A stretch of 64,000 nt of DNA from a virus (taxonomy: Duplodnaviria > Heunggongvirae > Uroviricota > Caudoviricetes). Positions 9,665 to 35,491 of this stretch are shown in pieces. Location of the stretch: IMG/VR virus record IMGVR_UViG_2703718833_000007, positions 6,191-70,190 of that record; one strand, written 5' to 3'. A program made the position numbers and the translations under genes. Within the stretch, counting starts at the first letter, position 1. Each line of letters begins with the position of its first letter. The notes under the pieces were generated by a model. That model saw only the letters and a list, made by a program, of their open reading frames with translations. It did no database searches and was not told the origin of the DNA.

Positions 9665-10148
9665 CAGGTTATTAGCCTGCGTTTATGTCGCCGTTTTCGT
9701 GATCATCAACCTTATTGTTAACCATTGCGGCCCGTGGGTAATTCCGATCACCACGGTAGCCGCTGTGTGTGTCAATATGATGATCCGTGACTTCTTGCTG
9801 TATGACGGCGGCTTGAAATGGTCTGCTACAACATGCGCCGCCGCTGGCGCAATCACGGTAATGATAAATTACGATGCTGGAATGGTAGCGATCGCGTCAT
9901 TCGTTGCGGTTGTTTCCGGTGCGCTTATATCTGGAGGTGTTTACCGGGTTTTGCCTGGTGATTTCGATTCTAAGCGCTGGCCTGCAAACATAGCTTCAGC
10001 CATCGGGGATGCGTTAATTTTCCCGACGCTATCGTTTATGGCGTTTATGCCGGAAATATCAGCGATGCAGTTTATCTCAAAAATGGCAGCGGTAACGGTG
10101 ATCACTATCATCATGCGCCGCTATTTCACGTTTGAGGGTAGAAAATGA
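9645..10148 (+). CDS. Multi-pass inner-membrane protein, possibly VUT/YhhQ-like (queuosine-precursor transporter family)
   Basis: Track ORF 9603-10148, start taken at MKKVAIDRLL with AAGAGG SD; 4-5 hydrophobic segments; family assignment from loose pattern resemblance only. Confidence 0.35.
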   Translation: MKKVAIDRLLACVYVAVFVIINLIVNHCGPWVIPITTVAAVCVNMMIRDFLLYDGGLKWSATTCAAAGAITVMINYDAGMVAIASFVAVVSGALISGGVYRVLPGDFDSKRWPANIASAIGDALIFPTLSFMAFMPEISAMQFISKMAAVTVITIIMRRYFTFEGRK

Positions 10149-10672
10149 ATTGGGATGATTATTTTATATACAATCCGGACACAGGTAAGTTGTACTGGAA
10201 ATATAGAAATGACATAGAAGAATCAAGGCGTAAACAATGGAATGCGTGTAATGCTGGTCATGAGGTTGGACATATTGGCGGAAGCGGTGGGTGTCTTAAT
10301 ACAGCGCTTACCGTTGGCGGAAAGCGTTATAATTTAAAAGTACATAGAATATGTTACGAGATGTACTATGGGCCAATACCTGAAGGTAAGGAGGTTGATC
10401 ATATAAATCACGTTAAAACAGATAATCGAGCCGTCAATCTTGGATTAAAAGACCATAAAGATAATATGCGCAACATGTCTTTAATGGTAAACAATACCAG
10501 TGGGTGCGCTGGTATCCATAAAAATAAACATGGTAAATGGGTTGTTAGAATCGGTGGAGGCAAAAGAGGTAATAGAATTTATATAGGGTGTTTTTCTGAT
10601 ATCAATGACGCAATAAAAGCTAGGCGCGACGCTGAAAGAAAGTATGGCTATCATGAAAATCACGGCAAATAG
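10145..10672 (+). CDS. HNH homing endonuclease (HNH_3 + AP2-like DNA-binding domain), paralogue 1 of 4
   Basis: Track ORF 175 aa; INW-DYF start motif, GPIPEG-EVDHINH HNH core, C-terminal AP2-like (AGIHKNKHGKWVVRI). Confidence 0.85.
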   Translation: MNWDDYFIYNPDTGKLYWKYRNDIEESRRKQWNACNAGHEVGHIGGSGGCLNTALTVGGKRYNLKVHRICYEMYYGPIPEGKEVDHINHVKTDNRAVNLGLKDHKDNMRNMSLMVNNTSGCAGIHKNKHGKWVVRIGGGKRGNRIYIGCFSDINDAIKARRDAERKYGYHENHGK

Positions 10673-10869
10673 AACAACCACGCCACCGCCGCGCGGCTTT
10701 GCCCGTGCTGTATTCCTGGCTAACGACCGGGCCATCAATCGTGCTACGCTCAACCGCGTTTTACCGGACTGAAATTTACAAAATGGCGTCATTGCGTGAT
10801 GTGGATCACATAATGGCGCTTTTCACCTTGTTCTGACGTATCCGTTTTGTATACTTCAAACAAGCAAAA

Positions 10870-10902
10870 TGCTCTTTAAAAATCCGGCAGCGCTGAAATG
10901 CG
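10870..10902 (+). promoter_or_regulatory. Second boxA-like element (TGCTCTTTAAAAA) with weak downstream hairpin; possible nutR analogue
   Basis: boxA-like 10/13 match; only a 3-bp stem CGC-UGAAAU-GCG follows, so weaker than site at 3064. Confidence 0.25.
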
Positions 10903-10931
10903 TAGAAATCACCTGAAAAGGAGAGAGCATT

Positions 10932-11108
10932 ATGCCTTTTGATAATTACCAATGGCATGACGACTATGAACGAGAAAGCGTCATGCGTGCAATGTGCAAT
11001 GTATGCAGCACGAAGAAAGGAGACTGCAACGAGTGCAACGAATGTTTAGATCATTGGCTAAGGGCCGGACACGCCGAAAGGCGGAGCGAAACAGAAAATC
11101 AAAAATAA
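10932..11108 (+). CDS. NinF-like small Cys-rich protein (putative)
   Basis: Own translation MPFDNYQWHDDYERESVMRAMCNVCSTKKGDCNECNECLDHWL...; GGAGAGAG SD; directly upstream of ninG. Confidence 0.3.
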   Translation: MPFDNYQWHDDYERESVMRAMCNVCSTKKGDCNECNECLDHWLRAGHAERRSETENQK

Positions 11109-11122
11109 TCGGGGTGATTTTT

Positions 11123-11728
11123 ATGCAGAACCCTAAAAAACCCATAAGACGCCGTTGCAAATGCTGCGGCGTTTTTTTTGAACCTAAATATCACAATCAA
11201 ACGTGGTGCAGCGATGAATGTCTGGAAGAACTGAAGTTTGATCAGCTATGCCGCGATCGTGAAAAGGCTATGAAGGCTATGGAGCGGAAGAAACGCCGCG
11301 ATAGCCAGCGTGAGGAACGCAACCGGAAGCGGAAGCAGTTAAATCCGCGTAGTTATTGGTTAAAGCAGGCGCAAAACGTGTTTAACGCATATATTCGCGA
11401 ACGTGACGCAGGACAGCCGTGTATATCTTGCGGGACTTATTATTATGAGCAATGCGGAGCAGATGCGGGGCATTACAGGACGGTAGCAGCAGCTGGACAC
11501 CTTCGATTTAACGAGGATAACGTAAACCTACAATGTCGACATTGCAATCAGGTATTAGACGGAAACATAGAGGCATATCGTCCGGCACTGATTCGAAAAA
11601 TTGGCCTTGCCAGGGTGGAGGCGTTGGAGAACAACAACGAAACCCATAAATGGACGATCGAAGAATGCAAGGAGATCATTAAAGTTTACCAGGCGAAATT
11701 GGACGCCCTAAGGAGAAAGGCGGCATGA
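11123..11728 (+). CDS. ninG: NinG/Rap-family recombination-associated protein
   Basis: Track ORF 10994-11728 trimmed to MQNPKKPIRRRCKCCGVFFEP; Cys clusters and YRPALIRKIGL region typical of lambda NinG. Confidence 0.75.
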   Translation: MQNPKKPIRRRCKCCGVFFEPKYHNQTWCSDECLEELKFDQLCRDREKAMKAMERKKRRDSQREERNRKRKQLNPRSYWLKQAQNVFNAYIRERDAGQPCISCGTYYYEQCGADAGHYRTVAAAGHLRFNEDNVNLQCRHCNQVLDGNIEAYRPALIRKIGLARVEALENNNETHKWTIEECKEIIKVYQAKLDALRRKAA

Positions 11729-12132
11729 ATGAATATACATTTAGCCTACCTTACCCGCCATCGAATAATAGGTATTACCGGCATTCACGAGGTTTTCATT
11801 ATATCAGTAAAGTGGGGAAAGAATACCGGGAACAGGTAAGAGACATCATCGAGCTATTAAATTTAAACATCAACCTATCTTGCCGACTGGCAATTACCAT
11901 TCATGCCGCGCCGCCGGATAACCGGATAAGAGATCTGGATAATATCACCAAATGCCTTTTTGATAGCCTTACTTACGCCGGATTCTGGACCGACGACGGG
12001 CAGATCGATTCTATAAAAATTGTTCGCTGCCGGAAGGTAAAAGGCGGGCGCTTGTTTATTAAGATCCGCGAACGCGGCGACCTACTACCGGATATTGACG
12101 AATACGAGACTAATATGTGGGGTGAGCAATGA
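11725..12132 (+). CDS. rusA: RusA-family Holliday-junction resolvase
   Basis: Track ORF 135 aa; LPYPPSNNRYYR...GFHYISKVGKEYR and DLDNITKCLFDSL motifs. Confidence 0.85.
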   Translation: MNEYTFSLPYPPSNNRYYRHSRGFHYISKVGKEYREQVRDIIELLNLNINLSCRLAITIHAAPPDNRIRDLDNITKCLFDSLTYAGFWTDDGQIDSIKIVRCRKVKGGRLFIKIRERGDLLPDIDEYETNMWGEQ

Positions 12133-12311
12133 AAAACGAAGTTAAAGATCTGCAAATAGATATTCAGTGCGATGAGCATGATTTAGCTACAGTCAGAAAA
12201 ATCCAGGCTTTTCATATGCGAGAATTGCTTGCATTGAAAGAGCTTGAGAGGAAGTTAGTCCAGTCTATTTCTGATCGTAAACGCCTTATTGCTCGTTACG
12301 GGGGCAAATAA
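12129..12311 (+). CDS. Hypothetical protein
   Basis: Track ORF 60 aa between rusA and Q. Confidence 0.4.
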   Translation: MKNEVKDLQIDIQCDEHDLATVRKIQAFHMRELLALKELERKLVQSISDRKRLIARYGGK

Positions 12312-13033
12312 TGAATCTGGAGTCAATTCTTAAATTCCACTTCCCAAAATCACCGCATTTGTCAGATGAAAGTCGTGGCACGTCACCGGACGCGCTTAAT
12401 ACTACGGATGCGCTAACTGCCGCTGGTATGGCGCAATCGCGCGTAGAGCTTGGTTATAGCGCTTTTTTAGGGAAGATGGAACTATCACAAGCCGAAAAGC
12501 ACAGGGCCGTAGTTTTGCTTACAGAGCGTTTAAGAGCTATGGCAAAAGATTATAAATACGTTATGGAACTGGACGAGGTGCGACGAAATGATCTCATTAT
12601 TCTTGTTGCCGTTTTCGCATTTCGGGATTATTGCCAGAGTGCCGCGACGGAAAAAACTTGTATGGAGTGCGGCGGATATAAATTTACGTTTGACGAGTAT
12701 GGGGAAAAACACCTTTGCAAAAAATGCAAGGGGCATGGGAAAGTTCTTAATCATTGCAAACAATGCAAGGGCCGTGGAGAAGTGCCTGATAAAGCAGCCA
12801 GCGAAGCGGCGGAAATGCCCGTGTTCAAAACGTGCCAGCATTGCGGCGGGCGCGGGTACTCGCGTTTCCCTGTAGATCTTGTCCGGCAGGCGGTTAATCA
12901 GCTTGTCTTTCCTGTAAGCCGATCAACATGGTGGAAGAAATACCGTGCTTTCTATGAAGACGCCATTGCTGAATTGTTCAAAGAAGAGGCGCGGGCTGAT
13001 AACGAAATTAAACGAGTGACGCGGGGTGAATGA
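12311..13033 (+). CDS. Late-gene antiterminator Q (lambda Q family)
   Basis: Track ORF 240 aa; N-terminus MNLESILKFHFPKSPHLSDESRGTSPDALNTTDALTAAGMAQS and zinc-finger region closely parallel remembered lambda Q. Confidence 0.85.
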   Translation: MNLESILKFHFPKSPHLSDESRGTSPDALNTTDALTAAGMAQSRVELGYSAFLGKMELSQAEKHRAVVLLTERLRAMAKDYKYVMELDEVRRNDLIILVAVFAFRDYCQSAATEKTCMECGGYKFTFDEYGEKHLCKKCKGHGKVLNHCKQCKGRGEVPDKAASEAAEMPVFKTCQHCGGRGYSRFPVDLVRQAVNQLVFPVSRSTWWKKYRAFYEDAIAELFKEEARADNEIKRVTRGE

Positions 13034-13233
13034 TGGATAAGCTGGAAATAAACGATAAGTTTGCCGTTATCTTGTTCGAAGATAAAACGGGCGGTGCTTG
13101 GTGTAAGAAAGTTACTGGTGCTGAAGCGCGTTTAATATTGGGCATGGCAAGCGCATTAAACGAAGGTGAATTGCCAGCCGTGCCAGTTAAGCCAGTACAT
13201 ATTTACGGACGGAGCAAAGACAATGAAGCCTAA
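13030..13233 (+). CDS. Hypothetical protein
   Basis: Track ORF 67 aa; ATGA overlap with Q stop. Confidence 0.4.
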   Translation: MMDKLEINDKFAVILFEDKTGGAWCKKVTGAEARLILGMASALNEGELPAVPVKPVHIYGRSKDNEA

Positions 13234-13492
13234 ATTAAAAGAACATCTATTTGCAAAGCTGGTTAATGACCTGACGTTATCAGCGCGGTTGTGCGGTGAT
13301 ACGCAACAATTGAGGGCATGGATAGCAAGGGATTTAAAAAAATATATTGAGCCTGGCGGGCCTGGTGACGAAATGACTATGGACAAGGCCATCAATCGCC
13401 GTTCGGCTGAATGGTCAGTGAGTAACACCGGATTAACCGGATACATTGAAGGCTATAACGACTGTTTACAGGATCATAGCGATGGCAAATAA
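13223..13492 (+). CDS. Hypothetical protein
   Basis: Track ORF 13166-13492 trimmed to MKPKLKEHLF. Confidence 0.35.
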   Translation: MKPKLKEHLFAKLVNDLTLSARLCGDTQQLRAWIARDLKKYIEPGGPGDEMTMDKAINRRSAEWSVSNTGLTGYIEGYNDCLQDHSDGK

Positions 13493-13781
13493 ACACTTAC
13501 ATTTGAATTTAAAAGGAGAATACTTCCACGCTATCAGGGCGGGGAAGAAGGTCGAGGAATACCGGCTTTATAATGACTATTGGCGCAAACGCCTTGAGGG
13601 GCGCGACTATACAAGATTGATTCTTAAATGGGGATACCCTGCAAACGACGATAAGGAAAGAATCCTTGTTCTCCCTTACATGGGGTACAAGATAAAGACT
13701 ATTCAGCATCCTTTGTTCGGTGATGAACCTGTTAAGGTTTTTGCTATCCACTGCGATATTTATTGGCAATATAGGTTTTAG
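13482..13781 (+). CDS. Hypothetical protein, possibly ASCH-like
   Basis: Track ORF 13446-13781; LHLNLKGEYFHAIRAGKKVEEYRL resembles ASCH beta-barrel N-terminus. Confidence 0.35.
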   Translation: MANKHLHLNLKGEYFHAIRAGKKVEEYRLYNDYWRKRLEGRDYTRLILKWGYPANDDKERILVLPYMGYKIKTIQHPLFGDEPVKVFAIHCDIYWQYRF

Positions 13782-13784
13782 AAT

Positions 13785-13997
13785 ATGAAAAGTAACCGCA
13801 AGCGCCTTGTAAGGGCATACGACAAAGCATTAAAGGCTTTTGATGATCTGCGACGCAATAAGCGCCAGCGCCGTAAAGTTGCGCGCATGTTTGTAAGGTG
13901 GTTGCATAATGAGGATTATTTCCTTAATGCTAGGCACATGACGCAGGATGTAGCAGACGCATTGGCTGACGAGAACGTTTATTATATGATGTGGTGA
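13785..13997 (+). CDS. Hypothetical protein
   Basis: Track ORF 70 aa. Confidence 0.35.
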   Translation: MKSNRKRLVRAYDKALKAFDDLRRNKRQRRKVARMFVRWLHNEDYFLNARHMTQDVADALADENVYYMMW

Positions 13998-14001
13998 TAA
14001 T

Positions 14002-14367
14002 ATGCAAATAATCATTGATTATCTTTGCCATGCTGCAAATACAATTTTTGGCATGTATCAACAACCATTCCTTCAGGAATGGGATGATATGCTAAACGAC
14101 ATCCTCGACAAAGGATTAATAATGGATGTTGACGAGCTTACAATCAGATTTAATTATGAGGGTGAAGAATATCTAATTTGGGTTGGTAATAGATGGTATT
14201 CATACGGTCATATTTATTCAATTGGTGGTAAGTTCATTAAAAGAAACCAGGAATTTAGACCGCGCTTCCGCACAATGCGCCGCCTGCATGATCTGCATAT
14301 GAAATTATTCGAAGATCAGGAAGCACGGGAATTATTCAAAATTTACGGGGATAAATCATGGAGCTAA
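14002..14367 (+). CDS. Hypothetical protein
   Basis: Track ORF 121 aa. Confidence 0.4.
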   Translation: MQIIIDYLCHAANTIFGMYQQPFLQEWDDMLNDILDKGLIMDVDELTIRFNYEGEEYLIWVGNRWYSYGHIYSIGGKFIKRNQEFRPRFRTMRRLHDLHMKLFEDQEARELFKIYGDKSWS

Positions 14368-14588
14368 AAATCTGGCAGGCTATCGACGTGGTTGATAACG
14401 AATTATCTATGTTTGCCACTGACGGGAAACGCGTGGTGATCGCTACATGGACACGCAACCACGATGATATTGCTTTTCGTCGCAAGGCGGCGGAATGGCT
14501 TTTCTCTGATGGCGGCTACACGATGAACATCGCACAGCTTGCCAGAATGAAAGATGAAAAGCTGGTGGACAGCTACACAACTGCGTAA
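14358..14588 (+). CDS. Hypothetical protein
   Basis: Track ORF 76 aa. Confidence 0.35.
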   Translation: MELKIWQAIDVVDNELSMFATDGKRVVIATWTRNHDDIAFRRKAAEWLFSDGGYTMNIAQLARMKDEKLVDSYTTA

Positions 14589-14598
14589 TGGGGTAAAT

Positions 14599-14829
14599 AT
14601 GCGTATCTATGAGCACAAGCGGGATAAAACCCGCTTTTTTGTTCGTGCTGGCGTGGCGTACCAGTATCACGAATGCGGTTACATTGAGGCGCTTGCTTAC
14701 GATCTGGACTTCGAGCAAGAAAAGGCATGGTTCGATTTTAAAATTTACCGTAAGCGCAAACCTACGCGCGACGAGCGCCACGCTATCCGGGACTTTTTAA
14801 TCAGCATTGAGCGTTGGGAGTCAGATTAA
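14599..14829 (+). CDS. Hypothetical protein
   Basis: Track ORF 14554-14829 trimmed to MRIYEHK. Confidence 0.35.
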   Translation: MRIYEHKRDKTRFFVRAGVAYQYHECGYIEALAYDLDFEQEKAWFDFKIYRKRKPTRDERHAIRDFLISIERWESD

Positions 14830-15056
14830 TGAAAGTCAAATTCTTGCACGATCACGGTTATCCATCACTGAAACAGGTTGTTGGTAAGGTTGTTGATGTA
14901 GTTCATAGCGATAATGTCACTTGCATGATTAACGGTGCTGACCTAATTGCCGCTGGCGCTGATGACCATTACATAAATCCGGCATGGTCGTATACGTTCA
15001 GCCTGGGCGACTTCGTTGGCGACAAGGGGCGCGGGCTGGAAGTAGTCGAGGGTTAA
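14829..15056 (+). CDS. Hypothetical protein
   Basis: Track ORF 14814-15056 trimmed to MKVKF (ATGA coupling). Confidence 0.35.
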   Translation: MKVKFLHDHGYPSLKQVVGKVVDVVHSDNVTCMINGADLIAAGADDHYINPAWSYTFSLGDFVGDKGRGLEVVEG

Positions 15057-15060
15057 CATC

Positions 15061-15309
15061 ATGGACGTTTACGAAGATCTATACCTCCAGACAGACACCA
15101 ACACTTTTTATTTTCTTAAAAACGGCGTCGTGTATCGCAGTGACGACGGGGTGATAATGAAAGAGTGGTTATTTAAGCGTGAAGACCTACTCGACGATCT
15201 GGTTTTTGCCGGGGTATTTCGTAAACGTCCGGCTAACATGAAAGAAGAGATGTTGATTGAGGTTATTAAAAATGAAAATCAGGGTAAGTTATTTCCGGGC
15301 GAAAGATAA
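15061..15309 (+). CDS. Hypothetical protein
   Basis: Track ORF 82 aa. Confidence 0.35.
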   Translation: MDVYEDLYLQTDTNTFYFLKNGVVYRSDDGVIMKEWLFKREDLLDDLVFAGVFRKRPANMKEEMLIEVIKNENQGKLFPGER

Positions 15310-15523
15310 GGCAACAGGAAAGCAGGTGGCGATCCTGGTTAACGAGGCGCAGTACATGTTTGTCCTTCAACCGTGGTGTATAGCTGACTATAACGATGAT
15401 TATCGCCGTCACGCTGCGCGGAGTGCTGTAGGAATGAAAGGATGGCAGCCGCGCGACATGGAAAACTATTGTGATTGGAAATTGGTGGCAAAATACACGG
15501 TAGACTATAAAGGGGTTTTCTGA
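15272..15523 (+). CDS. Hypothetical protein
   Basis: Track ORF 15257-15523 trimmed to MKIRVSYF. Confidence 0.35.
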   Translation: MKIRVSYFRAKDKATGKQVAILVNEAQYMFVLQPWCIADYNDDYRRHAARSAVGMKGWQPRDMENYCDWKLVAKYTVDYKGVF

Positions 15524-15525
15524 TT

Positions 15526-15741
15526 ATGTTTGCAAGATGCGTTTACTCTGACACTGCGTGCTTTACTGTTGGTGAATTATATAGCGTTGATCTTCTTAAC
15601 GGGTGCAAGCGCGGCGCTGGCGGCATTCATTATGTAAAGGATAATGATGGCGATGCGTGGCAAATTTACGGCGATCATGCAAAGTGGGCTGTTAAGGGAA
15701 GTTTTGACAATCGCGTGATGGCGCGTTTTGTTAAGTGGTAA
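15526..15741 (+). CDS. Hypothetical protein
   Basis: Track ORF 71 aa. Confidence 0.35.
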   Translation: MFARCVYSDTACFTVGELYSVDLLNGCKRGAGGIHYVKDNDGDAWQIYGDHAKWAVKGSFDNRVMARFVKW

Positions 15742-16153
15742 TGTCGTTTACATCAATAAATGTGATCTACCACGCAAAGTTTACGAAATGGCATTGTTTC
15801 GGCAGTGCCATTTTGTTATATATAAGCCACTGAAAGACGGATGGTGCAAAATCATGAAAAGCGACAAATTCATTGCGTGCTGTTTTGTTGAAGTGCCTAA
15901 AGGTGATTTTTTCTTCAATTATGAATTTAAAGATAGTTTAGGAAGATCTCATGTTGTCGCTGGTAAGCGTGGAGACTGGTTGTATATCACTGATGGGGAC
16001 AGGATCTTCACTAAAAACCAGTTATTCAGAATAAAGGCAGAAAATAATGAAATACCAGTAGGCAATATGGGGATTATGAATTATCACGCTGGTTTATCGT
16101 TAAAGCACGATGCGGTAAATAAAGCGCGTAGCTTACCTGGTGCGGAGTTTTAA
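15728..16153 (+). CDS. Hypothetical protein (start uncertain)
   Basis: Track ORF 141 aa. Confidence 0.35.
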   Translation: MLSGNVVYINKCDLPRKVYEMALFRQCHFVIYKPLKDGWCKIMKSDKFIACCFVEVPKGDFFFNYEFKDSLGRSHVVAGKRGDWLYITDGDRIFTKNQLFRIKAENNEIPVGNMGIMNYHAGLSLKHDAVNKARSLPGAEF

Positions 16154-16155
16154 TT

Positions 16156-16410
16156 ATGGTTGTGATCAGACTATGGCGCGGCAATAGCCGATTTGATGGT
16201 GAGTACGTCCGCGTGATTGAAGATGTTAATCGTGGTCGGTTTTATGAATTGGTATACAGCGAAAAAAGGGAGAAAGAATATCTGAACGAATCGACCCCTA
16301 TGTGGCGTAAAGTGGCTGGCCTTGCCTTAATTCTGCGCCGCGGGTTTTATACAGATCACAACACACTAACAGATGCGGAACTAGTGACAATTCTTTACAA
16401 AGGAGAATAA
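16156..16410 (+). CDS. Hypothetical protein
   Basis: Track ORF 84 aa. Confidence 0.35.
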   Translation: MVVIRLWRGNSRFDGEYVRVIEDVNRGRFYELVYSEKREKEYLNESTPMWRKVAGLALILRRGFYTDHNTLTDAELVTILYKGE

Positions 16411-16413
16411 CAA

Positions 16414-16737: not shown

Positions 16738-16750
16738 GCTGTATAAAGTC

Positions 16751-17510: not shown

Positions 17511-17518
17511 AGCCGTAT

Positions 17519-25608: not shown

Positions 25609-26874
25609 ATGTCAGATTTAATTCAAGTAAACACAAAAATTTCATGTAATAAAATCCGCAGGGAGACGTACAACGGGAGGGAGCATCTCGTAGTTCCTTC
25701 GTATACACTCCCATTTGGTATCGTTATGAATCGGGAATATTACCCAGAAGCTGAAATCATTGCTAATTATCAATCTCTGGAAGGAACACTCGCACCGTTG
25801 GGCCATCCTACGGTTGACGGTGAATTTGTTTCCGCATTTAGCCCGGAAGGTCTGAATATTGGCTTTTGTGGAGCGTGGAACAGGAATGTTGAATTGCGCG
25901 GGAACCGTGTTTATGTGGAGAAATGGGTGGATGTTGAAACTGCCAGTCATTCAGAACAAGGACGCGAATTATTAAGCCGACTGGAAGCACTGGAAAAAGG
26001 CGAAAGCAAAGATCCGATCTGGTCATCTGTTGCCGTATATCGTCAGCGTATGCCAGCTACTGAAGAGATGAAAGCCCAGGGTGCTGATAGCGTTGTCAAA
26101 ATCATGTCAATTGACCATGACGCCATCTTACTGCATGAACCGCCAGCCGCATCGCCTGAACAGGGCGTTGGCCTGATGGTTAACACTGACCAGGCGAAGC
26201 CGTTAATGGCTGTGGCAATGAAAGAAAACAGCTATCGCACGCTTGAAAGACAATTGGAAGAAGCTGCGCGTGAACTGTTCCACGATGCAGATTATGTATA
26301 TGTTGTGGACTTCACTGATAAAGAAGTGACGATTGCCACTAATACCGAAAGTGCTCAAGTTTGCACATATGAAAAACAGGCTGATAAAATTATTCTCAAT
26401 AATGGCGAGCTTGCAACCAATGAGGAAAGTAAATCCTGGTTCGCTCAGTTCGCTGAACACTTATCTAATCTTTTCTCCCTGAATGAAAAAATTAAGGCCA
26501 ATAAATCGGAGGGTGAACCCATGCCTTTGACCAAAGAAGAACGCGCCGAACTGGTGAAAGAAATTAACGAAAGCATCACCGCTAATATGGCTAATGCAAT
26601 CGCTGAAGCACTTAAACCAGTACAGGCAAGCGTTGAAGAATTACAGACCAATCAAAAAGCGATTAAAGAAGAGATCGCAGCAAACGCAGATAAAGAAGTA
26701 GCAGAAAAACGCGCCGCAGTAGCAAAAGTACACGGCGAAATTGTTGCTAACGCATTAAATGGTGAAGCGTTAGAAGCAATGTTTAAATCCCTGGGCAAAG
26801 CCGCGCCGATGGCAACCAACGCAGCAAGCGAAGGTAAAAAAGGCGAAGTCCCGGACTTTAACACTTATTTCTAA
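25609..26874 (+). CDS. Head assembly protein (scaffold / prohead protease-scaffold candidate)
   Basis: Track ORF 25600-26874 trimmed to MSDLIQ with GGGAG SD; C-terminal half helical Ala/Glu/Lys-rich. Confidence 0.5.
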   Translation: MSDLIQVNTKISCNKIRRETYNGREHLVVPSYTLPFGIVMNREYYPEAEIIANYQSLEGTLAPLGHPTVDGEFVSAFSPEGLNIGFCGAWNRNVELRGNRVYVEKWVDVETASHSEQGRELLSRLEALEKGESKDPIWSSVAVYRQRMPATEEMKAQGADSVVKIMSIDHDAILLHEPPAASPEQGVGLMVNTDQAKPLMAVAMKENSYRTLERQLEEAARELFHDADYVYVVDFTDKEVTIATNTESAQVCTYEKQADKIILNNGELATNEESKSWFAQFAEHLSNLFSLNEKIKANKSEGEPMPLTKEERAELVKEINESITANMANAIAEALKPVQASVEELQTNQKAIKEEIAANADKEVAEKRAAVAKVHGEIVANALNGEALEAMFKSLGKAAPMATNAASEGKKGEVPDFNTYF

Positions 26875-28389: not shown

Positions 28390-28407
28390 TATAACGTTTC
28401 CTGTAAC

Positions 28408-28437
28408 TCCCCGGCGCAATGCCGGGGATTTTTTTTG
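28408..28437 (+). terminator. Rho-independent terminator after major capsid gene
   Basis: ccccggc-gcaat-gccgggg hairpin followed by 8 T. Confidence 0.8.
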
Positions 28438-28454
28438 TATGTGGAGCAAACAAA

Positions 28455-28841: not shown

Positions 28842-28843
28842 CA

Positions 28844-29029
28844 ATGTGGAATGACCTGACATTACCGGATCCGCTATTACCGAAACCGTTTACCCGCGTA
28901 TGGGTGCAGACTGATACCGGGCGGCAGGTGGCGGCATATCTCAATGACGCTGGCGAATGGGTGATTCTATGCCCGCGCGTGGCGGAAACCTATCCGAAAA
29001 TCATCAAATGGAGTTGCGGATATGAGTAA
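28844..29029 (+). CDS. Hypothetical structural protein
   Basis: Track ORF 61 aa. Confidence 0.35.
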   Translation: MWNDLTLPDPLLPKPFTRVWVQTDTGRQVAAYLNDAGEWVILCPRVAETYPKIIKWSCGYE

Positions 29030-29390
29030 GATCGCGAGATTCAGCTATAAGGCATTAGCCACCATTTACCCCGTGACGCGTGACGACTGGACAAACTCCG
29101 ACGTATACGGAACGCCATATCTGATTGATTGTTCATGGGAACGCACTGACGGAACCGCAACAGACGCAAACGGGAATGAGGTTAGCAACACGATAACCGT
29201 ATATACCGAACTGCTTCACAAGATGCAGCCAGTGCAGCGCCCTGAAAAAGGGTGGATGCTTGCCACTGGTGACACTACTGCTATTTCTGACCCGCTGGCG
29301 GCTGGGGCCAACTTTATAACCGGGATCGTTGAATGGGACATGAGCATGTTTAACGACACGCCGGACTATAAGATCGTGACAGGAGGTTAA
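29022..29390 (+). CDS. Head closure / head-tail joining protein (putative)
   Basis: Track ORF 122 aa; position. Confidence 0.4.
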   Translation: MSKIARFSYKALATIYPVTRDDWTNSDVYGTPYLIDCSWERTDGTATDANGNEVSNTITVYTELLHKMQPVQRPEKGWMLATGDTTAISDPLAAGANFITGIVEWDMSMFNDTPDYKIVTGG

Positions 29391-29392
29391 TC

Positions 29393-29866
29393 ATGCCACT
29401 GAAAGGCGTCAGGCGTGTCCGTATGAAAATGACGGAAGAAATCAGGAATATAGCAGACAAAAAGACTTATGAAGTGCTATGGATTGTTGGCAATGTCGCG
29501 TCCGGCCTTGCATCTGGAATGACGCCAGTTGATACGGGTTTTTTAATTAACAGCATGTATCAGACAGTTGAGAAAAACGGTAACGGACTTTGCCTCAGGG
29601 TTGGATATACCGCCCGCTATGCTGAATGGGTGCATGACATGCCAGGTACATTAATGGGACAGCCTCGCGAGCATTTCGGGAAAACCAATAACCTTTCGGA
29701 TTTCGGCCCGAAACAGGTAATTGAGTTCGGCGGCGGTACTGGCAAGGGTGATTACTGGGATCCAAACGCAGAACCTGAATTTTTGCGCAAGGCGTTCGAG
29801 GAACCAGATAACTTCAATGAAATCTGGAACACGATCAAACTTGGATACTGGACGAAACAATCATGA
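29393..29866 (+). CDS. Head-tail joining protein (HK97 gp10-like, putative)
   Basis: Track ORF 157 aa; position. Confidence 0.4.
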   Translation: MPLKGVRRVRMKMTEEIRNIADKKTYEVLWIVGNVASGLASGMTPVDTGFLINSMYQTVEKNGNGLCLRVGYTARYAEWVHDMPGTLMGQPREHFGKTNNLSDFGPKQVIEFGGGTGKGDYWDPNAEPEFLRKAFEEPDNFNEIWNTIKLGYWTKQS

Positions 29867-30249
29867 AACGCAGCGAAGTATACGATGAAATAAGGGATTG
29901 GATTAAATCCCACGGGTACGACGAAGGTTATATTTTGCAGGCCCGTTTCTGGAATGAGCGATCCAATTCTAATAAAGACAGATACATTGTCATACAGCAA
30001 AACGGCGGCGCGGCTGGAGAAGAAGCAATAACCCGTGACTATTTCCGCATCCTGGTTATTTCAGCGCGCAATGACGCAAATATCAGCGAAGTGGAAGACC
30101 TCGCCGATGCAATACGGCAAAGTATGATAACCGAATATAAAACTGATAAAATTACACACATGAAGCCAGTTGGCGCTATTCCTGCAATGCAGACAAGAGA
30201 AGGGCGCTTTATTTTTACCGTAGCTTTTCAAACCATCATATCAAGATAA
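29863..30249 (+). CDS. Tail completion/terminator protein (putative)
   Basis: Track ORF 128 aa; position before major tail gene. Confidence 0.4.
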   Translation: MKRSEVYDEIRDWIKSHGYDEGYILQARFWNERSNSNKDRYIVIQQNGGAAGEEAITRDYFRILVISARNDANISEVEDLADAIRQSMITEYKTDKITHMKPVGAIPAMQTREGRFIFTVAFQTIISR

Positions 30250-30262
30250 GAGGTAACTAAAC

Positions 30263-30739
30263 ATGTCTCAGACTTGTGATAAAGGTTCGTTCTTAGGCCG
30301 CGACGTTGCCGTATTTTACGCTATCGCTTGCCCTAATGCGAAACCTAATGACGAAGCATATAAAGCGTTAGGCATGATGCGTGGTAAATCGCTTTCCGTA
30401 GAATGGGAAACCGCAGACGCCACCGCTGATAAATCAGCAGACTACACGAAAGAATCATTGGTAACTTACAAATCTGTTGCCTTCTCAGGTGACGGCGTAT
30501 CACGCACCGAAGAAATCCACAACCAGAAGGCACTTAAACGCCACGTTATTAACCCTGGCGAAACAACAGGTGCGCAGCCTTACGTCTGGTTGAAACTCGT
30601 TTCCCCGCTCGATGTAACCGAAGGTCCGTTTCTTTGCACCTCATTCAAAGAGGAGGATCCGCACGATGATGTGTCCACCTGGTCCATTGAATGCGAAAGC
30701 GCTGGCAAAGTCACGGTAGGTGACGTTCCGTCAGTGTAA
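30263..30739 (+). CDS. Major tail (tube) protein
   Basis: Track ORF 158 aa; followed by terminator; position. Confidence 0.65.
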   Translation: MSQTCDKGSFLGRDVAVFYAIACPNAKPNDEAYKALGMMRGKSLSVEWETADATADKSADYTKESLVTYKSVAFSGDGVSRTEEIHNQKALKRHVINPGETTGAQPYVWLKLVSPLDVTEGPFLCTSFKEEDPHDDVSTWSIECESAGKVTVGDVPSV

Positions 30740-30756
30740 CAGCAAATATTAACATC

Positions 30757-30782
30757 GGGGCCATTTGGCCCCTTTATTTTTT
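30757..30782 (+). terminator. Rho-independent terminator after major tail gene
   Basis: ggggcc-attt-ggcccc hairpin followed by tttatttttt. Confidence 0.7.
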
Positions 30783-31475
30783 ATGGTGACAGTTATGATC
30801 CATGTTCGAACAGGACAATTTGCGGTTGTTGTTGATGGCAGGCGTTACGAGTTTAACCCCTGCTTTGCTGCAATGGCTAAAATAGGCAGTGACAGAGAAC
30901 TGGTCGAATACTTCGCAACGGTGCACGGTGGCAAATATCCATCACGATTGCCAACGGATACAGACCTACGCAATCGCATTCTGGCGCGTTGTTATGGTGA
31001 ACTGGTGCAAACGTCCATCCACATACTTAAATGTTGCTCAGAATGCGAAATAGGCCCGTTATTGGGCGAATGTAGCTTTACTCCTTCTGGTAAGTTGAGA
31101 CTTAAACCTGGATTGATGCCCACCAGCGACGTTATCACGCTTGCGCAGCACTGCATGTTCCACGGTTTAATTGGTGACGGACCGGAGGAAGACGTTGGCG
31201 ATGAGCAGGAAGGCGACTATAAACAGACTTTTGACATCCTTGAATACGTTTACTCTGCCGTTGCTCACCTGGGATTGTCTGAATCTGAAGCATGGGGCAT
31301 GACAATGACCGGATACAGGGCCGCTGTACGCGCTAAAACGCCACCAGACGAAAGAAACGAGAAACGTAAGCCAAACGTTCATATAAATAAACGTGATTAT
31401 GATGAGCAAATGGAGGCCGCTAAAAGGGTGCTGGAATTGATGAAAAAACGCGAGCAAGAAAAAGCCCGGAATTAA
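30783..31475 (+). CDS. Tail assembly chaperone (putative, position-based)
   Basis: Track ORF 30765-31475 trimmed to first ATG after terminator. Confidence 0.4.
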   Translation: MVTVMIHVRTGQFAVVVDGRRYEFNPCFAAMAKIGSDRELVEYFATVHGGKYPSRLPTDTDLRNRILARCYGELVQTSIHILKCCSECEIGPLLGECSFTPSGKLRLKPGLMPTSDVITLAQHCMFHGLIGDGPEEDVGDEQEGDYKQTFDILEYVYSAVAHLGLSESEAWGMTMTGYRAAVRAKTPPDERNEKRKPNVHINKRDYDEQMEAAKRVLELMKKREQEKARN

Positions 31476-31490
31476 CCGGGCCTTTATCTT
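31459..31490. terminator. Bidirectional hairpin terminator between convergent genes
   Basis: gcccgg-aattaa-ccgggc with T-tracts on both strands. Confidence 0.55.
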
Positions 31491-31792
31491 TATTTGTATG
31501 CTGCAAATCTGCATCTTGCCTCATCCAGATCGTGAATATCGTACACGTTATCGTAAATGTAAGTTGCAACCTGTGCTTTCTGTACGTCAGTTGCGTTAGG
31601 GAACTCCATGCTTACAAAAGTCACTGCATCAACGTAGTTCTTAAACATTTTTTTGTTAACGCACAGTGCGTAAATCAATACACCAGGCCAGAAAATCAGC
31701 GCGCCAATGAATGCCATGAGCATATTCAGATGTTTTTTCTGCGCTACAGCCATAGTTACTACGAAGCCGATGAGTGCAATTACCAGTTCCAT
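31490..31792 (-). CDS. Opposite-strand moron: membrane protein (2 TM) with soluble C-terminal domain
   Basis: Track ORF 100 aa; GAGAGGTG SD; inserted between tail chaperone and tape-measure genes. Confidence 0.5.
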   Translation of the reverse strand: MELVIALIGFVVTMAVAQKKHLNMLMAFIGALIFWPGVLIYALCVNKKMFKNYVDAVTFVSMEFPNATDVQKAQVATYIYDNVYDIHDLDEARCRFAAYK

Positions 31793-32167
31793 GATACACC
31801 TCTCATTTACGTTTATCTTCGGTTGTCATTGCCAGCACTAGCACAGCCATCACATTAAATGCTAACCATTCTGTAATATATACATCTATAACCGTTTTGA
31901 TTGCGTCCATTTACCCGCCCCGCTTATTTCTTGTTTTTAAGTGCTTTCAGCATTTCTTCGATAAAGTCGGCATAGTGCTCATGCTCGTTGGGTCGGTAGT
32001 AGTTTTTCATTTTCTTATCCTCTTTTGCTTCCTCCGGTTAATCCGGCCTTCTAAATCCCTTTACTCTATCCCTTTCCTTTAGCCTCTTTATACAAAATGT
32101 ATTCGTTGAAGTGAAGCCATTTTGTATAAAATAGAGATCAGGATCACACTTTTTACGAGGTTAAATC

Positions 32168-34513
32168 ATGGCTACCAGTTTAGGTACAATTTATTACGAA
32201 GTTGATGCAAAAACTGGTCAACTTCTAGTCGCTCAGAGACAGGCTGATCAGGCTTTTGACAGTATAGAGCGCGGCGCAAAACGTGCCGACCGCCAGGTGA
32301 ACACGCTTAAGACTTCAATCAAAGCACTATCCAGGGTCATCCATCTGTTACTTGCTGCGGAGGCTGTGCGCCAGTTTATTGACATGGCGGAGCAAGCAAA
32401 AATGCTTCGTGTCAAAATTAAAATGCTCACAGGTGACGCAGAGGCTGCAGGACGTGTTTTTGACGGCCTGAAAAAAATATCAAAGGAAACCGGGCAAAGC
32501 CTTAAAGACACTGGCGAATTGTGGCAGGGCCTGGCTATTTCACTAAAGAACACTTCCGCTACGGAAGGCCAATTGCTCAACCTGGTTGGCACTATTCAGA
32601 AGATGGGTGCGTTAGGAGGCGCGTCAGCGGAACAGATGTCTAATTCTATGCGCCAGTTCCGCCAGTCTATAGACGGCGGCGTGCTGCGTGCTGAAGAGTT
32701 TAACAGCCTGTTAGAGAACACGCCGACCATCGTACAGACAATGGCCCGCCATATGGGGTTGTCAATGGGCCAGTTCCGCGCCGAAATGCTGGACGGCAAG
32801 ATCACGGCTGAAAGGATGGTTAACGCGATTCAGGCAGCTACACAGGAAACAAACGAGAAGTTTGCACAGTTGCCGCGCACGTCCGGCAAGGCTATCAATG
32901 AGCTTAAAGTTGAGGTGATGGGACTTGTCGAACAGTTAGACGATCTTTTCGGCATATCAGATGGCGTTGTGTCGGCAATAGACTTAATCACTGGTGGCGT
33001 TGAGGGATTAGGTAAAGGCGCAAAATTCGCCGCAACATGTTTCAATACACTAAAAACGGCTGGCAGTGAGTTCATAGACATGTTTGACGACGTGGCTGTT
33101 AAGGCTGGCGAGGTGGCGGAAGAAATCATTAGAATGGTAACGCCAATCAAGGCGCTAATGGATGGCTACAAATGGATGAAGGAGATTGTAGGAAAGCAAA
33201 CAGAAGAATATAACACCAATTATGAGAAGAAATACGGTAAAAGACTTGGTAAGGGAATGCAATTTTGGGATGATTGGCAGGCCGTACTTAACCAAACAAA
33301 AGAAAACAAAGGAACCGACACCGCTAACGACGGCAAGATCACCGGATTCGAGCCGCCAGTAGATAAGCCAGGAAAACCGAAAAAAGGCAAAAAAGACAAG
33401 AAATCTGAAGCTGATCGGCTTGGTGATGAAGGTGTAAGTGTCTCCGACCAGTACAACAAAGACGCCGCCGCTATGCGTAAAGCACTGGAGAACGGCAAGG
33501 CCATTGACGCTGCGTTTGCTCAGGGCAAAATAACCCTCCTTGAGTACAAGGCAGCGCAAAAGGGGATAGGCAAGGAACTGAAGGACGAATTGGCACAAAT
33601 CCCGGTAGAAGAATTGCAGGACAAATGGGCGCACATAGTAAGCCCGATGGATCAGCTTAAGGGCGAAATTGACCCAATCAAACAGGCGCAGAATGAATGG
33701 GCAGTAAGAAAGCAAATGTTATTAGACCTGGGCGCTACAGAGGCGCAACAGAGACAGGCGCAGTTAGAATATGAACAACAGATCCGCGATCTGAAGTGGG
33801 AGCAGTGGCAGGCGCAAAGCGACACAAACAGCCTGATCGGTGCTTGTGTTAGCGGCCTCAAAGGTGGCATGGGTAATGCTCTTACCGGCCTGCTAAACGG
33901 CACTCAATCATTAAGCGAGGTTTTCGCCAACCTGGGAAGCAGCATACTTAACACCGTTGGCAACAAACTCTCAGAAATAGCCGCTAACTGGATAGCAGAT
34001 CAGTTAATGATGGAAACGCAAAGCAAGGCTACCCAGGCAAGCACTGCGGCTGGCGCTGTGGCTGCCCAGGGTGAGATCGCGGCAGCGGCGGCCCCGGCAG
34101 CGGCGGCTACGGCTGCATCAACTGGCGGTAGTTGGGCTATGGCTGGTGCTGCGGCGCTTTCTGCGATCATGTCGCTGGCAACGTCAATTTTTGGCGGCGG
34201 GCGTTATAATGGTGGTTCTGTGAATGGTGGTAGTCTGTATCGCGTAGGGGAACACGGAATACCTGAGCTATTCCAGACGAGCAACGGGCGTCAGTATATG
34301 ATCCCTGGGGAAAATGGCAGGGTTATTCCTGGCCGCGATCTTTTCAGTGGTGGCGGCATTAATATGCCTGTTAACATCACTGTTCAGACCACAAACGGGT
34401 TTAGCGACGAGGACAGTCGCAGACTTGAGCAGACAATGGAACGTGTAGCGATGAAAATGATGGCAAGGGAATCGCAACGACCGGGCGGAATGTTGCAACC
34501 TCGCCGCAAATAA
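32168..34513 (+). CDS. Tail tape-measure protein
   Basis: Track ORF 781 aa; helical N-terminal two-thirds, Gly/Ala-rich C-terminal region; position. Confidence 0.9.
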   Translation: MATSLGTIYYEVDAKTGQLLVAQRQADQAFDSIERGAKRADRQVNTLKTSIKALSRVIHLLLAAEAVRQFIDMAEQAKMLRVKIKMLTGDAEAAGRVFDGLKKISKETGQSLKDTGELWQGLAISLKNTSATEGQLLNLVGTIQKMGALGGASAEQMSNSMRQFRQSIDGGVLRAEEFNSLLENTPTIVQTMARHMGLSMGQFRAEMLDGKITAERMVNAIQAATQETNEKFAQLPRTSGKAINELKVEVMGLVEQLDDLFGISDGVVSAIDLITGGVEGLGKGAKFAATCFNTLKTAGSEFIDMFDDVAVKAGEVAEEIIRMVTPIKALMDGYKWMKEIVGKQTEEYNTNYEKKYGKRLGKGMQFWDDWQAVLNQTKENKGTDTANDGKITGFEPPVDKPGKPKKGKKDKKSEADRLGDEGVSVSDQYNKDAAAMRKALENGKAIDAAFAQGKITLLEYKAAQKGIGKELKDELAQIPVEELQDKWAHIVSPMDQLKGEIDPIKQAQNEWAVRKQMLLDLGATEAQQRQAQLEYEQQIRDLKWEQWQAQSDTNSLIGACVSGLKGGMGNALTGLLNGTQSLSEVFANLGSSILNTVGNKLSEIAANWIADQLMMETQSKATQASTAAGAVAAQGEIAAAAAPAAAATAASTGGSWAMAGAAALSAIMSLATSIFGGGRYNGGSVNGGSLYRVGEHGIPELFQTSNGRQYMIPGENGRVIPGRDLFSGGGINMPVNITVQTTNGFSDEDSRRLEQTMERVAMKMMARESQRPGGMLQPRRK

Positions 34514-34519
34514 ACAAAA

Positions 34520-34547
34520 CCCCGGTACAATGCCGGGGCTATTTTTA
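34520..34547 (+). terminator. Rho-independent terminator after tape-measure gene
   Basis: ccccgg-tacaatg-ccgggg hairpin followed by T-rich tract. Confidence 0.7.
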
Positions 34548-34984
34548 GTTGTTCTCAAAACTTGTATATCCTCTTTCAATTTTTCCACCGTGTACGCTTC
34601 TGGCAAATACCGCGTCAGTATACCTGAAAAATGGGCATGTATATGTATCCCCTTTACTATCCATATATTTTAGCACCCATGCTATGCGTTTTACGTTGCT
34701 TTTATTTGCCGGATTTTTCATTTTATTTTTCCTCCGCAAATCACAATCTTCCGTTTCTTGCTATATAGCTGCGAGCAAACATCACCTGCCAGATGTTCCA
34801 AATCTCACGCCACGTAAATTCATCATCTTCCATATCTCACACCATCGCGCTTGTATGGTTCGCCATCAGCAAACGGGATTAACTCATCGTTTGCCACCAT
34901 TCGATTAAACCAGTCTTTCAGAACAACCAGGGAGAACCGGATCCCGTAACTGTGCAATTCGCGCCACCTCATTTATGTGCCACC

Positions 34985-35491
34985 CTATTTACCGTGATTT
35001 GGATGAAAACCGTATTTAATTTCGGATTCTTGCCTTGCCTTGATTGCATCATCTTTGCTTTTGAATACCCCTAAATGTTTTAATTTTCCGTTGATTCTGA
35101 TAACTGCGCACCATTTACGCAATCTTTCAAGCCAATAAACACCAGCACAGCCGGATTTATTATTATGGTTGCGACTTCTGTTGTGGTTATTGTCTTGGCA
35201 GGTAACTAGCCGCAAATTTTCTATATGGTTGTTTACCTTATTGTGATCGATATGATCTATTTCCATTCCTTCCGGGATTGGTCCGTTGTGCATTTCCCAT
35301 ATAATTCTATGCTCTTGGTATATCCTCCTGTTAAACCCTACATGTATATACCCACTTCGTTTATGAAGGCACCCGGCTCGCTTTCCCGCATATCTTGAAT
35401 TCCAGGTTTTGGAAACGCCATTTCTTGGCTTCCATAATATAGCGCCGTCACTGTATATAAAATAATCATTCCAGTTAATTACTTGTGACAT
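34985..35491 (-). CDS. HNH homing endonuclease (HNH_3 + AP2-like), paralogue 4 of 4, opposite strand
   Basis: Track ORF 168 aa; INWNDYFIY, GPIPEGMEIDHIDHN, SGCAGVYWLERLRKWCAVI motifs. Confidence 0.85.
   Translation of the reverse strand: MSQVINWNDYFIYSDGAILWKPRNGVSKTWNSRYAGKRAGCLHKRSGYIHVGFNRRIYQEHRIIWEMHNGPIPEGMEIDHIDHNKVNNHIENLRLVTCQDNNHNRSRNHNNKSGCAGVYWLERLRKWCAVIRINGKLKHLGVFKSKDDAIKARQESEIKYGFHPNHGK

Follow-up and report, generated by a model that had tools for sequence, protein, structure and literature searches.

The DNA analysed here (the window) is a 64,000-nucleotide (nt) stretch of IMG/VR virus record IMGVR_UViG_2703718833_000007, positions 6,191 to 70,190, and it is prophage sequence from window position 1 to about 47,300. 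The prophage is a temperate, non-lambdoid element of the mEpimmI group and carries five genes of the HNH_3/AP2 type together with one zinc-ribbon HNH-type gene, ORF5. We consider it likely that all six are free-standing homing endonuclease genes (HEGs). They lie between genes and outside introns and inteins, they occur sporadically among otherwise collinear relatives, and the lineages that can be checked are each tied to a site. The genes, and the features that bear on their insertion, are the following (aa, amino acids; ORF, open reading frame).

4234 to 4830, plus strand: ORF5, zinc-ribbon HNH-type endonuclease, 198 aa, between erf and ssb
10145 to 10672, plus strand: HNH1, HNH_3/AP2 type, 175 aa, between a membrane-protein gene and the ninG region; its ATG overlaps the upstream stop codon (ATGA)
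10689 to 10772, plus strand: stump of a DNA cytosine methyltransferase gene (last 27 codons and stop, RM9245-type allele), 3' of HNH1
17820 to 18311, plus strand: endolysin allele accompanying HNH2, ending in CEWGVTNGK-stop (CEWGEKWTR-stop in mEp021)
18301 to 18822, plus strand: HNH2, Xp10-type HNN/AP2, 173 aa, between endolysin and Rz
25116 to 25607, plus strand: HNH3, 163 aa (GTG start at 25116), between the genes for head morphogenesis and scaffold
34518 to 34540, no strand assigned: bidirectional terminator-like hairpin after the tape-measure gene, from a consensus scan only; the HNH4 cassette on the minus strand would end here too
34969 to 34984, minus strand: remnant of the 3' end of an 84-aa ORF (GAHK-stop-like, GGTGGCACATAAATGA), directly after the HNH4 stop codon
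34985 to 35491, minus strand: HNH4, 168 aa, part of a minus-strand cassette that separates the tape-measure gene from gene M
Source contig LONT01000016.1, 13336 to 13875, about 1.7 to 2.2 kb before the first window position: the fifth gene of the HNH_3/AP2 type, which encodes 179 aa and is flanked by dnaB and a gene for 375 aa

A first-pass annotation, made from the sequence alone, had listed the five ORFs in the window, and all five are present and full length. HNH4 is the sole minus-strand gene, the other three HNH_3 genes and ORF5 are on the plus strand, and minus-strand translation gives stop-filled frames for four of the five ORFs. The five positions (erf/ssb, membrane protein/ninG region, endolysin/Rz, head morphogenesis/scaffold, tape measure/M) were correctly read as well. 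For the third gene, however, the proposed TTG start at 25077 is less likely than the GTG at 25116, which gives a 163-aa protein as in RefSeq. The count of four genes plus one holds for the window but not for the whole prophage, which has five HNH_3/AP2 genes and one zinc-ribbon HNH gene; the window begins inside the prophage, so the fifth gene was out of view of that annotation. The sites had been described as module boundaries; they are instead gene-to-gene translational junctions within modules (the lysis cassette, the head module and the recombination operon). A hidden Markov model built from the four window proteins found no further family member in the 64-kb window. A 119-aa ORF with a TTG start (34549 to 34908, plus strand), located between the tape-measure gene and HNH4 and opposite the minus-strand cassette, had no PHROG match and is probably not a gene.

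The source contig of the prophage is LONT01000016.1 (assembly GCA_001575935.1), and the five window proteins are exact matches to Escherichia coli proteins with locus tags AUP78_12680 to AUP78_12980. The whole prophage is about 54.6 kb long, and its integrase gene abuts dgcM (ydaM) on the source contig, about 7.4 kb left of the window start. Its closest relatives are mEp021, mEp010, mEp013, mEp044, mEp515, mEp554 and MagusPhagus, to which it has about 90-93% nt identity over most of the aligned backbone; with the mEp phages it also shares gene order and the ydaM/dgcM integration site. As judged from these matches, the prophage is a member of the mEpimmI (mEp021) group in E. coli, integrated at dgcM/ydaM. 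The group consists of Nus-dependent, temperate, non-lambdoid phages that mostly integrate at ydaM; their DNA does not hybridise with lambda probes, and their structural proteins are not recognised by anti-lambda antibodies (PMC11893012). The earlier description of the element as a lambdoid prophage was therefore not upheld. Only the nin/Q/lysis order and the M-L-K-I-J tail genes are lambda-like, and transcription of dnaB and the other replication genes runs leftward from the repressor region. The words "HNH" and "homing" do not occur in the main text of the group description (PMC11893012).

Pfam HNH_3 (PF13392) was detected in HNH1, HNH2, HNH3 and HNH4 with E values of 3e-16, 5e-14, 3e-20 and 4e-20, respectively (52-72 bits, gathering cut-off 24.8), and the dnaB-adjacent gene is also annotated as HNH_3. 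Pfam AP2 (PF00847) did not exceed its gathering score in any of the four proteins (best 23.2 bits, cut-off 33.3); sub-threshold matches were obtained for two of them (E = 9e-5 for HNH2, 6e-4 for the other) and none for the remaining two. The proteins are 39-47% identical to HNH1 in a four-way alignment and 35-51% identical in pairwise BLASTP comparisons across all paralogues. The INW-DYF and GPIPEG motifs, attributed to all four genes in the first-pass annotation, are found in three. HNH2 has HRLAWFFHYGVWPEKD instead, and its boxes (HRLAW..WP, DNR and NLRE) are those described for the Xanthomonas phage Xp10-type enzymes (PMC2248197). HNH2 is 47% identical to Xp10 57R. Named relatives at about 50% identity include proteins of phages phiEB49, Sf12 and JulesPiccard, which are among the nearest to HNH4, and of STP-SP5.

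In an alignment of the four window proteins with 50 homologues (n = 54), residues H80, N92 and N104 (HNH4 numbering) were invariant in all 54 sequences, the four window genes included. Pfam HNH_3 was found in 54 of the 54 and AP2 in 30. The family profile matched I-HmuI (PDB 1u3e) with E = 3.5e-9 over positions 2-106, the N-terminal two thirds, and the AP2 domain of WRI1 with E = 2.4e-5 over the C-terminal third. Modelled with AlphaFold, HNH4 has a mean predicted local distance difference test score (pLDDT) of 92, and the first-ranked PDB structure in a Foldseek search with the model was again I-HmuI (probability 1.00). In the model, the C-terminal domain consists of a three-stranded sheet (strands within 118-143) packed on a helix (146-159), and it superposes on AtERF1 (1gcc) at 1.2 Å over 50 columns and on TEM1 (7et4/7et5) at 1.3-1.7 Å. 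The modelled structure indicates that HNH4-type proteins combine an HNN-type beta-beta-alpha-metal nuclease, similar to I-HmuI, with an AP2-fold DNA-binding domain. The proposed HNH-AP2 assignment is borne out by fold and profile, not by the Pfam AP2 threshold.

ORF5 had been presented as a fifth HNH-motif zinc-ribbon gene. It is a zinc-ribbon HNH-type endonuclease with the motif CxxC...HH...CxxCH, but it belongs to another family than the four HNH_3 genes. No meaningful Pfam match was obtained for it even at an E value of 10; its best support comes from PHROG 2340 "endonuclease" (E = 1e-33), followed by weaker matches to EndoVII and HNH PHROGs.

The junctions were compared with endonuclease-free alleles in mEp021, in the relatives designated L039, L234 and L240, and in other relatives, and precise insertion boundaries were found. 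In the empty alleles the neighbouring ORFs are adjacent or overlapping; in the occupied alleles each gene has a complete ORF on either side. All six either overlap the gene that precedes them or begin 5 nt past it. On the downstream side three abut or overlap the next start codon, and a fourth ends 1 nt short of it. Because of these overlaps and abutments at stop, ribosome-binding site (RBS) and start, we expect the six genes to be co-transcribed and translationally coupled with the surrounding operon. At four of the sites the interrupted gene receives a replacement end from the cassette, and its displaced original end is kept as a short diverged repeat; in two cases the displaced end is in frame and forms the C-terminal tail of the endonuclease.

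At the ORF5 site, window positions 4205 to 4810 correspond to only 26 bp in mEp021, where erf ends in LNGEIG-stop and is joined to ssb by TAATG (empty junction ...AAAGAGCTTAACGGGGAGATCGGTTAATGAGC...). The window erf ends in LNGTIN-stop, ORF5 starts inside the erf 3' end, and ORF5 itself finishes in NGEIG-stop on the original erf stop codon, overlapping the ssb ATG (TAATG). Since relatives of ORF5 at another site have different C-termini, the ORF5 tail is a captured erf end. The anatomy between endolysin and Rz is similar. Empty alleles end in VCEWGEKWTR-stop, overlapping the Rz ATG (in mEp021 ...GTTTGCGAATGGGGTGAGAAATGGACAAGGTGA...). The window endolysin ends in ICEWGVTNGK-stop, its stop codon is overlapped by the HNH2 start by 11 nt, and HNH2 ends in GCEGETWTR-stop on the original stop/Rz-start overlap, now a 13-nt overlap with the Rz start. 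Positions 18795 to 18822 are homologous to the endolysin 3' end of HNH-free alleles, and EGETWTR plus the stop codon constitute the captured tail of HNH2.

HNH3 is a pure insertion relative to mEp021 and L039. The empty head-morphogenesis/scaffold alleles read GGGAGTAATAACC-GTG-AGT-AAA-GAA-TTA-ATT-CAG (mEp021 junction ...TGGGAGTAATAACCGTGAGTAAAGAATTAATTCAGG...), and the former scaffold RBS and GTG now start HNH3; in L008 the gene still begins with GTG-AGT-AAA. The end of HNH3, ...GGGAGTGTTTAAG-ATG-TCA-GAT-TTA-ATT-CAA, gives the scaffold gene back its RBS, start and N-terminus, with the last HNH3 codons (GGGAGT...TAA) serving as a new RBS for the scaffold ATG at 25609. At the HNH4 site, window positions 34835 to 35480 replace 8 bp of L240. 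The HNH4 start overlaps the stop codon of the 84-aa ORF (35479 to 35733) by 13 nt, and the 16-nt copy of the end of this ORF after the HNH4 stop matches the true ORF end in the HNH-free L234.

HNH1 is, on sequence comparison, not a simple insertion in the window, as it adjoins the stump of a deleted methyltransferase gene. Its start codon occupies the position of the methyltransferase gene start in mEp021, and the sequence is again homologous to mEp021 from 10689 onward, a point within the 3' end of the methyltransferase gene. The stump encodes PRGFARAVFLANDRAINRATLNRVLPD followed by a stop codon, which matches the C-terminus of the RM9245 methyltransferase; the window keeps the last 84 bp of the RM9245-type gene. 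In RM9245, the HNH1 orthologue is placed in tandem between the membrane-protein gene and an intact methyltransferase gene. The RM9245 tandem and the window stump together show insertion at the methyltransferase 5' end, followed by deletion. Among 47 loci compared at this site, 44 have a cytosine methyltransferase gene of about 252 aa, one is empty, and one other locus and the window have HNH1. The relative with neither gene is L175 (IMGVR_UViG_2695420423_000006), which has a 241-bp gap from the membrane-protein gene to ninG and could represent either a clean deletion or the ancestral empty state.

For the distribution of the family, Dam, TerL and gpM were used as anchors in IMG/VR, which gave about 45, 48 and 31 mEpimmI-like stretches, respectively, and backbone genes and family members were mapped on these. 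The contigs were told apart by name; related genomes share many exact 50-mers. Occupancy by site among the IMG/VR relatives was as follows.

Endolysin/Rz: 0 of about 46
Head morphogenesis/scaffold: 1
terS/terL: 1 (L039/L114)
Downstream of Rz: 1
Membrane protein/ninG region: 1
ninG/rusA: 4
ssb-to-dam interval: 1
Tape measure/M: 0 of 31
I/J: 0 of 31

Of the 22 IMG/VR contigs that span the whole equivalent region, 19 have no family gene and three have one. Among 5,426 complete E. coli genomes the prophage type was found in 35, with HNH2 in none and HNH1 in five of these. The isolated phage mEp021 has two HNH_3/AP2 genes (dnaB-adjacent and I/J) and is empty at all four window sites. mEp515 has four (dnaB-adjacent, I/J and the HNH3 and HNH4 sites), and both phages have an ORF5-type gene. 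Compared with the two, the prophage is additionally occupied at erf/ssb, endolysin/Rz and membrane protein/methyltransferase. In mEp021, mEp515 and three IMG/VR contigs, relatives of ORF5 are instead located between ssb and the gene that follows it. Across the phage group at least ten different junctions are occupied, each rarely, and the heaviest loads seen are those of the window prophage and mEp515. The remark in the first-pass annotation that such density is more typical of virulent phages is fair for the family overall (PMC2248197), but the temperate mEp515 also has four such genes plus one. A peptide-pattern search of IMG/VR for HNH2 gave no matches; the HNH2 relatives discussed below came from a protein collection, via their encoding contigs.

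Several further genes came to light at these sites. The ORF5-type ORF of mEp021 (178 aa from stop to stop; 9172 to 9705 in L007, about 13827 to 14360 in MH706966), between ssb and an anti-RecBCD-like gene, is unannotated, and its mEp515 equivalent is annotated as "Phage protein". An extra 603-bp gene lies directly 3' of Rz in L003 (1566 to 2168, MLI107) and L004 (1546 to 2148, STEC308). In the IMG/VR contig L106, a gene of the HNH_3 family separates Rz from the backbone gene that comes next.

The sporadic distribution bears on the idea that these are domesticated genes needed by the phage, either HNH proteins that assist terminase or AP2-domain regulators. HNH proteins do assist terminase in HK97-like phages, one relative (L039/L114) has a family member between terS and terL, and the purifying selection described below is a further point in favour. 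However, most relatives, including plaque-forming phages, do without these genes (19 of the 22 contigs, and the four window sites in mEp021), and in the prophage itself no family member adjoins terS or terL, as HK97 gp74-type proteins would. We consider domestication very improbable.

The first-pass annotation called the genes paralogous, a term that should not be taken to mean duplication within this genome. The five proteins are only 35-51% identical, and HNH2, HNH3 and the dnaB-adjacent gene have closer relatives at the same site in other genomes than in their own. Since same-site relatives are closer than co-resident paralogues, the five are independent acquisitions and not duplications that arose here. 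The dnaB-adjacent gene shares 60% identity with its counterpart at that site in mEp021 (mEp021_10) and 38-44% with its co-resident paralogues; with mEp515_11, this lineage is found at one site in three genomes. HNH3 recurs at its own site in L008/L106 and mEp515. Orthologues of HNH2 with 86% (E. coli O157:H7 and others), 73% and 61% identity (Salmonella enterica, with other surrounding genes) are all located between Phage_lysozyme and Rz genes. Orthologues of HNH1 and HNH4 were detected in few genomes, and there solely at their own sites. In the three lineages in which this can be checked (HNH2, HNH3 and dnaB-adjacent), each lineage keeps its own site, as far as the compared genomes tell.

The tails of the HNH2 orthologues are likewise captured endolysin ends, of about 3, 7 and 28 residues, which points to repeated or remodelled insertion of this lineage into the conserved end of the endolysin gene that codes for GLxNRRxxExxxCxWG. 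One member of the HNH2 cluster, MEA0049801.1 (326 aa, annotated as "i-spanin Rz"), is about as long as HNH2 and Rz summed and is probably either a fusion caused by loss of the overlapping stop codon or an annotation artefact.

Site fidelity also bears on a reading of the genes as ordinary mosaic accessory genes ("morons"), moved by general or illegitimate recombination, with the nuclease taking no part in the spread and perhaps degrading host or competitor DNA. Mosaicism is indeed high in the group, and many other segments of the window have no counterpart in mEp021; the short flanking repeats resemble scars of illegitimate recombination, and HNH4 is in a variable minus-strand cassette of the kind typical for morons. 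On the other hand, the HNH2 lineage holds the same junction across backbones whose endolysins are 53% identical, which random shuffling would not predict. The protein family is of the I-HmuI/HNN-AP2 homing type, and its occurrence at ten or more junctions sets it apart from other accessory genes, which behave differently. Such shuffling is partly compatible with homing, but as the whole explanation we regard it as unlikely.

Selection on the genes was assessed by the Nei-Gojobori method as the ratio of non-synonymous to synonymous divergence (dN/dS) from orthologues. HNH3 compared with L106 gave a dN/dS of 0.03 (5 non-synonymous and 28 synonymous differences), and HNH1 compared with L179 gave 0.08 (12 and 29), indicating purifying selection. 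Truncated members of the family (102-119 aa) do exist in other genomes, and HNH1 no longer has an adjacent target gene, so that decaying remnants of past invasions might be envisaged. With full-length ORFs, invariant catalytic H, N and N residues, dN/dS ratios of 0.03-0.08 and a high-confidence HNH4 model, the probability that the window genes are pseudogenes is close to nil, and for HNH1 and HNH3 the dN/dS ratios rule it out. The first-pass annotation had named two findings that would refute it, degenerate paralogues and HNH-free alleles that lack precise insertion boundaries; neither was seen. Both decay and domestication are contradicted by the distribution and the dN/dS values.

Diverged flanks adjoin four of the five window genes. 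The endolysin beside HNH2 has only 54% protein identity to the mEp021 endolysin from about 17885 onward. Because the same allele (96% aa identity) accompanies the 86% identical HNH2 orthologue in L297, the endolysin allele travels with HNH2. The ssb gene beside ORF5 (4811 to 5234) is 73% identical to mEp021 ssb at the nt level over the aligning part, with 91% for erf upstream, and the scaffold region beside HNH3 is 86% identical, compared with 93% upstream. Among the relatives, ssb identity ranges from 67 to 95%, and ORF5-type genes are found on either side of ssb in different genomes. This variation marks ssb as a hotspot of allele exchange. HNH4 and mEp515_91 are 99.6% identical at the nt level, the sole clear signal of recent transfer. 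For HNH3 and L106 the signal is modest (gene 92-94%, flanks 76-92%), and it is reversed for HNH3 and mEp515, so that a general claim of recent transfer was dropped.

A further possibility is that the enzymes are weapons of competition or exclusion, which cut related superinfecting phages or resident prophages that lack the insert, with gene conversion as a by-product; they would be expressed in lytic growth or by the prophage. Exclusion through HEGs is well established in T-even phages. In the window, the direction of HNH4 transcription is opposite to that of the late operon and the HNH4 cassette has a terminator of its own, which is compatible with expression in the lysogen, and the proteins have weak matches to the PADLOC "HEase" models. 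Against this possibility, the other genes belong to early or late operons, for which silence is expected in a lysogen, and a promoter scan, which covered the HNH4 surroundings only, identified none above background (6 sites, 4.3 expected in shuffled sequence). Exclusion is also compatible with homing and not exclusive of it. As the primary role of these genes we find exclusion improbable. A defence-system reading was rejected, because PADLOC gave only these weak matches (E values of 1e-6 to 1e-10), to models for homing endonucleases.

If the six genes are HEGs, as we favour, the process would take place in a mixed infection or upon infection of a lysogen that carries a related prophage. The enzyme would recognise the uninterrupted junction of the endonuclease-free relative and nick or cut it, and recombinational repair, with the carrier genome as template, would then copy the endonuclease gene together with markers next to it. 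The carrier allele would be immune, its junction being split by the insert. Each of the five independently acquired HNH_3/AP2 lineages would have its own target. The nicking or cutting and repair steps are modelled on the established behaviour of I-HmuI-type and T4 seg/mob elements. Diverged flanks are as expected from co-conversion, and degenerate copies elsewhere are as in the HEG life cycle. The flanking repeats probably record the founding illegitimate insertion and would have been kept since they preserve both neighbours and the translational coupling. The first-pass annotation had deduced active homing; the pattern indicates past mobility and present function and not current activity, and it is from the sequence pattern that we infer ongoing homing in this lineage.

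Several observations weigh against this interpretation. The putative target sites of all these proteins are read from the insertion points only. The flanking duplications are not a product of simple double-strand-break repair and imply illegitimate founding insertions or later remodelling. Mosaic temperate phages commonly have diverged flanks, whether or not HEGs are present. The window HNH3 is only 81% identical to its mEp515 counterpart at the nt level, compared with 92-98% for the flanks, which fits long residence with vertical descent no less than recent transfer. Finally, HNH1 has no neighbouring target gene and may therefore be stranded.

To our knowledge, the phages listed for the HNN-AP2 family are all virulent, whereas the window element is integrated and temperate. 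Genomes with several free-standing HNN-AP2 genes are known from T1, Rtp, T5, RB16/RB43 and Xp10/OP1/Xop411 (PMC2248197, which cites Magnani et al. 2004). The window genes resemble these genes in domain order (HNH without cysteine dyads, then AP2), in the presence of diverged copies at varying intergenic sites and in the existence of degenerate copies. In the Xp10 study the flanks were not conserved, and spread independent of sequence was proposed (PMC2248197), in contrast to the empty alleles, gene-end repeats and site fidelity observed here. I-HmuI of Bacillus phage SPO1 (PDB 1u3e) has a homologous N-terminal DNA-contacting region and HNN catalytic core, but it is intron-encoded and has helical, helix-turn-helix C-terminal DNA-binding modules, whereas the window genes are free-standing and encode an AP2 domain. 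The IPA-HNH HEGs of ICP1 also combine HNH and AP2 and adjoin segments that differ between otherwise similar genomes (Barth et al. 2023, PMC10448857); ICP1, however, is virulent, and its HNH domains are too diverged for Pfam HNH_3, which the window genes match strongly. With the T4 seg and mob HEGs the window genes share insertion between genes, sporadic occurrence among relatives and the expected co-conversion of flanks. They differ in that seg enzymes are GIY-YIG and mob enzymes are HNH without AP2, and in that the T4 genes often have their own regulatory signals in place of the fusion to a translational junction seen here. HEGs are also carried by temperate cluster J mycobacteriophages (PMC3706429).

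Two observations concern other parts of the window. Positions 47481 to 64000 contain the host genes zntB, dbpA and ttcA and, from about 51,400, the Rac prophage, with its integrase gene at 51431 to 52666, recT at 53415 to 54281 and recE at 54217 to 56817. The mEpimmI-type prophage at dgcM and Rac at ttcA are thus two prophages within 4 kb of one another. Gene J (39641 to 44980) has many internal repeats of about 30 aa between 42400 and 44000 (VNASISTLD.. / RLDQAIADETSAR..), which are visible as numerous off-diagonal blastn matches against mEp021 J.

The kind of element described here is already known, and the understanding of homing endonucleases is unchanged. New are the host group, whose description omits these genes, and a load well above the zero or one found in most relatives and matched only by mEp515. 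New as well are clean empty-site comparisons with captured gene ends and the specialisation of the HNH2 lineage for the endolysin end. HNH-AP2 HEGs have been catalogued mostly in virulent phages, usually without empty-site comparisons. The junction anatomy illustrates a way for a selfish gene to settle in operons with tight coupling and leave the phage viable, through start/stop overlaps and duplicated or captured gene ends. It also matters for annotation: two of the endonucleases have tails that derive from neighbouring genes, HNH2 and Rz are joined in one database entry, and an mEp021 endonuclease gene is unannotated. The isolated phages mEp515 and mEp021, with and without particular genes, offer a tractable system for homing, co-conversion and prophage cutting.

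A broader proposal is that HEGs are a main engine of allele exchange in this group and more than passive passengers. They would target the conserved ends of essential genes, such as the GLxNRRxxExxxCxWG end of the signal-arrest-release (SAR)-type endolysins in Enterobacteriaceae prophages, carry replacement ends that keep the invaded gene working and drag endolysin, ssb and scaffold alleles into new backbones, and an infecting carrier would cut the empty site of a resident prophage. We put this forward tentatively, as something that is possible but rather doubtful. If it were true, temperate phages would by homing also attack lysogens, with the host chromosome cut at the empty site of the prophage.

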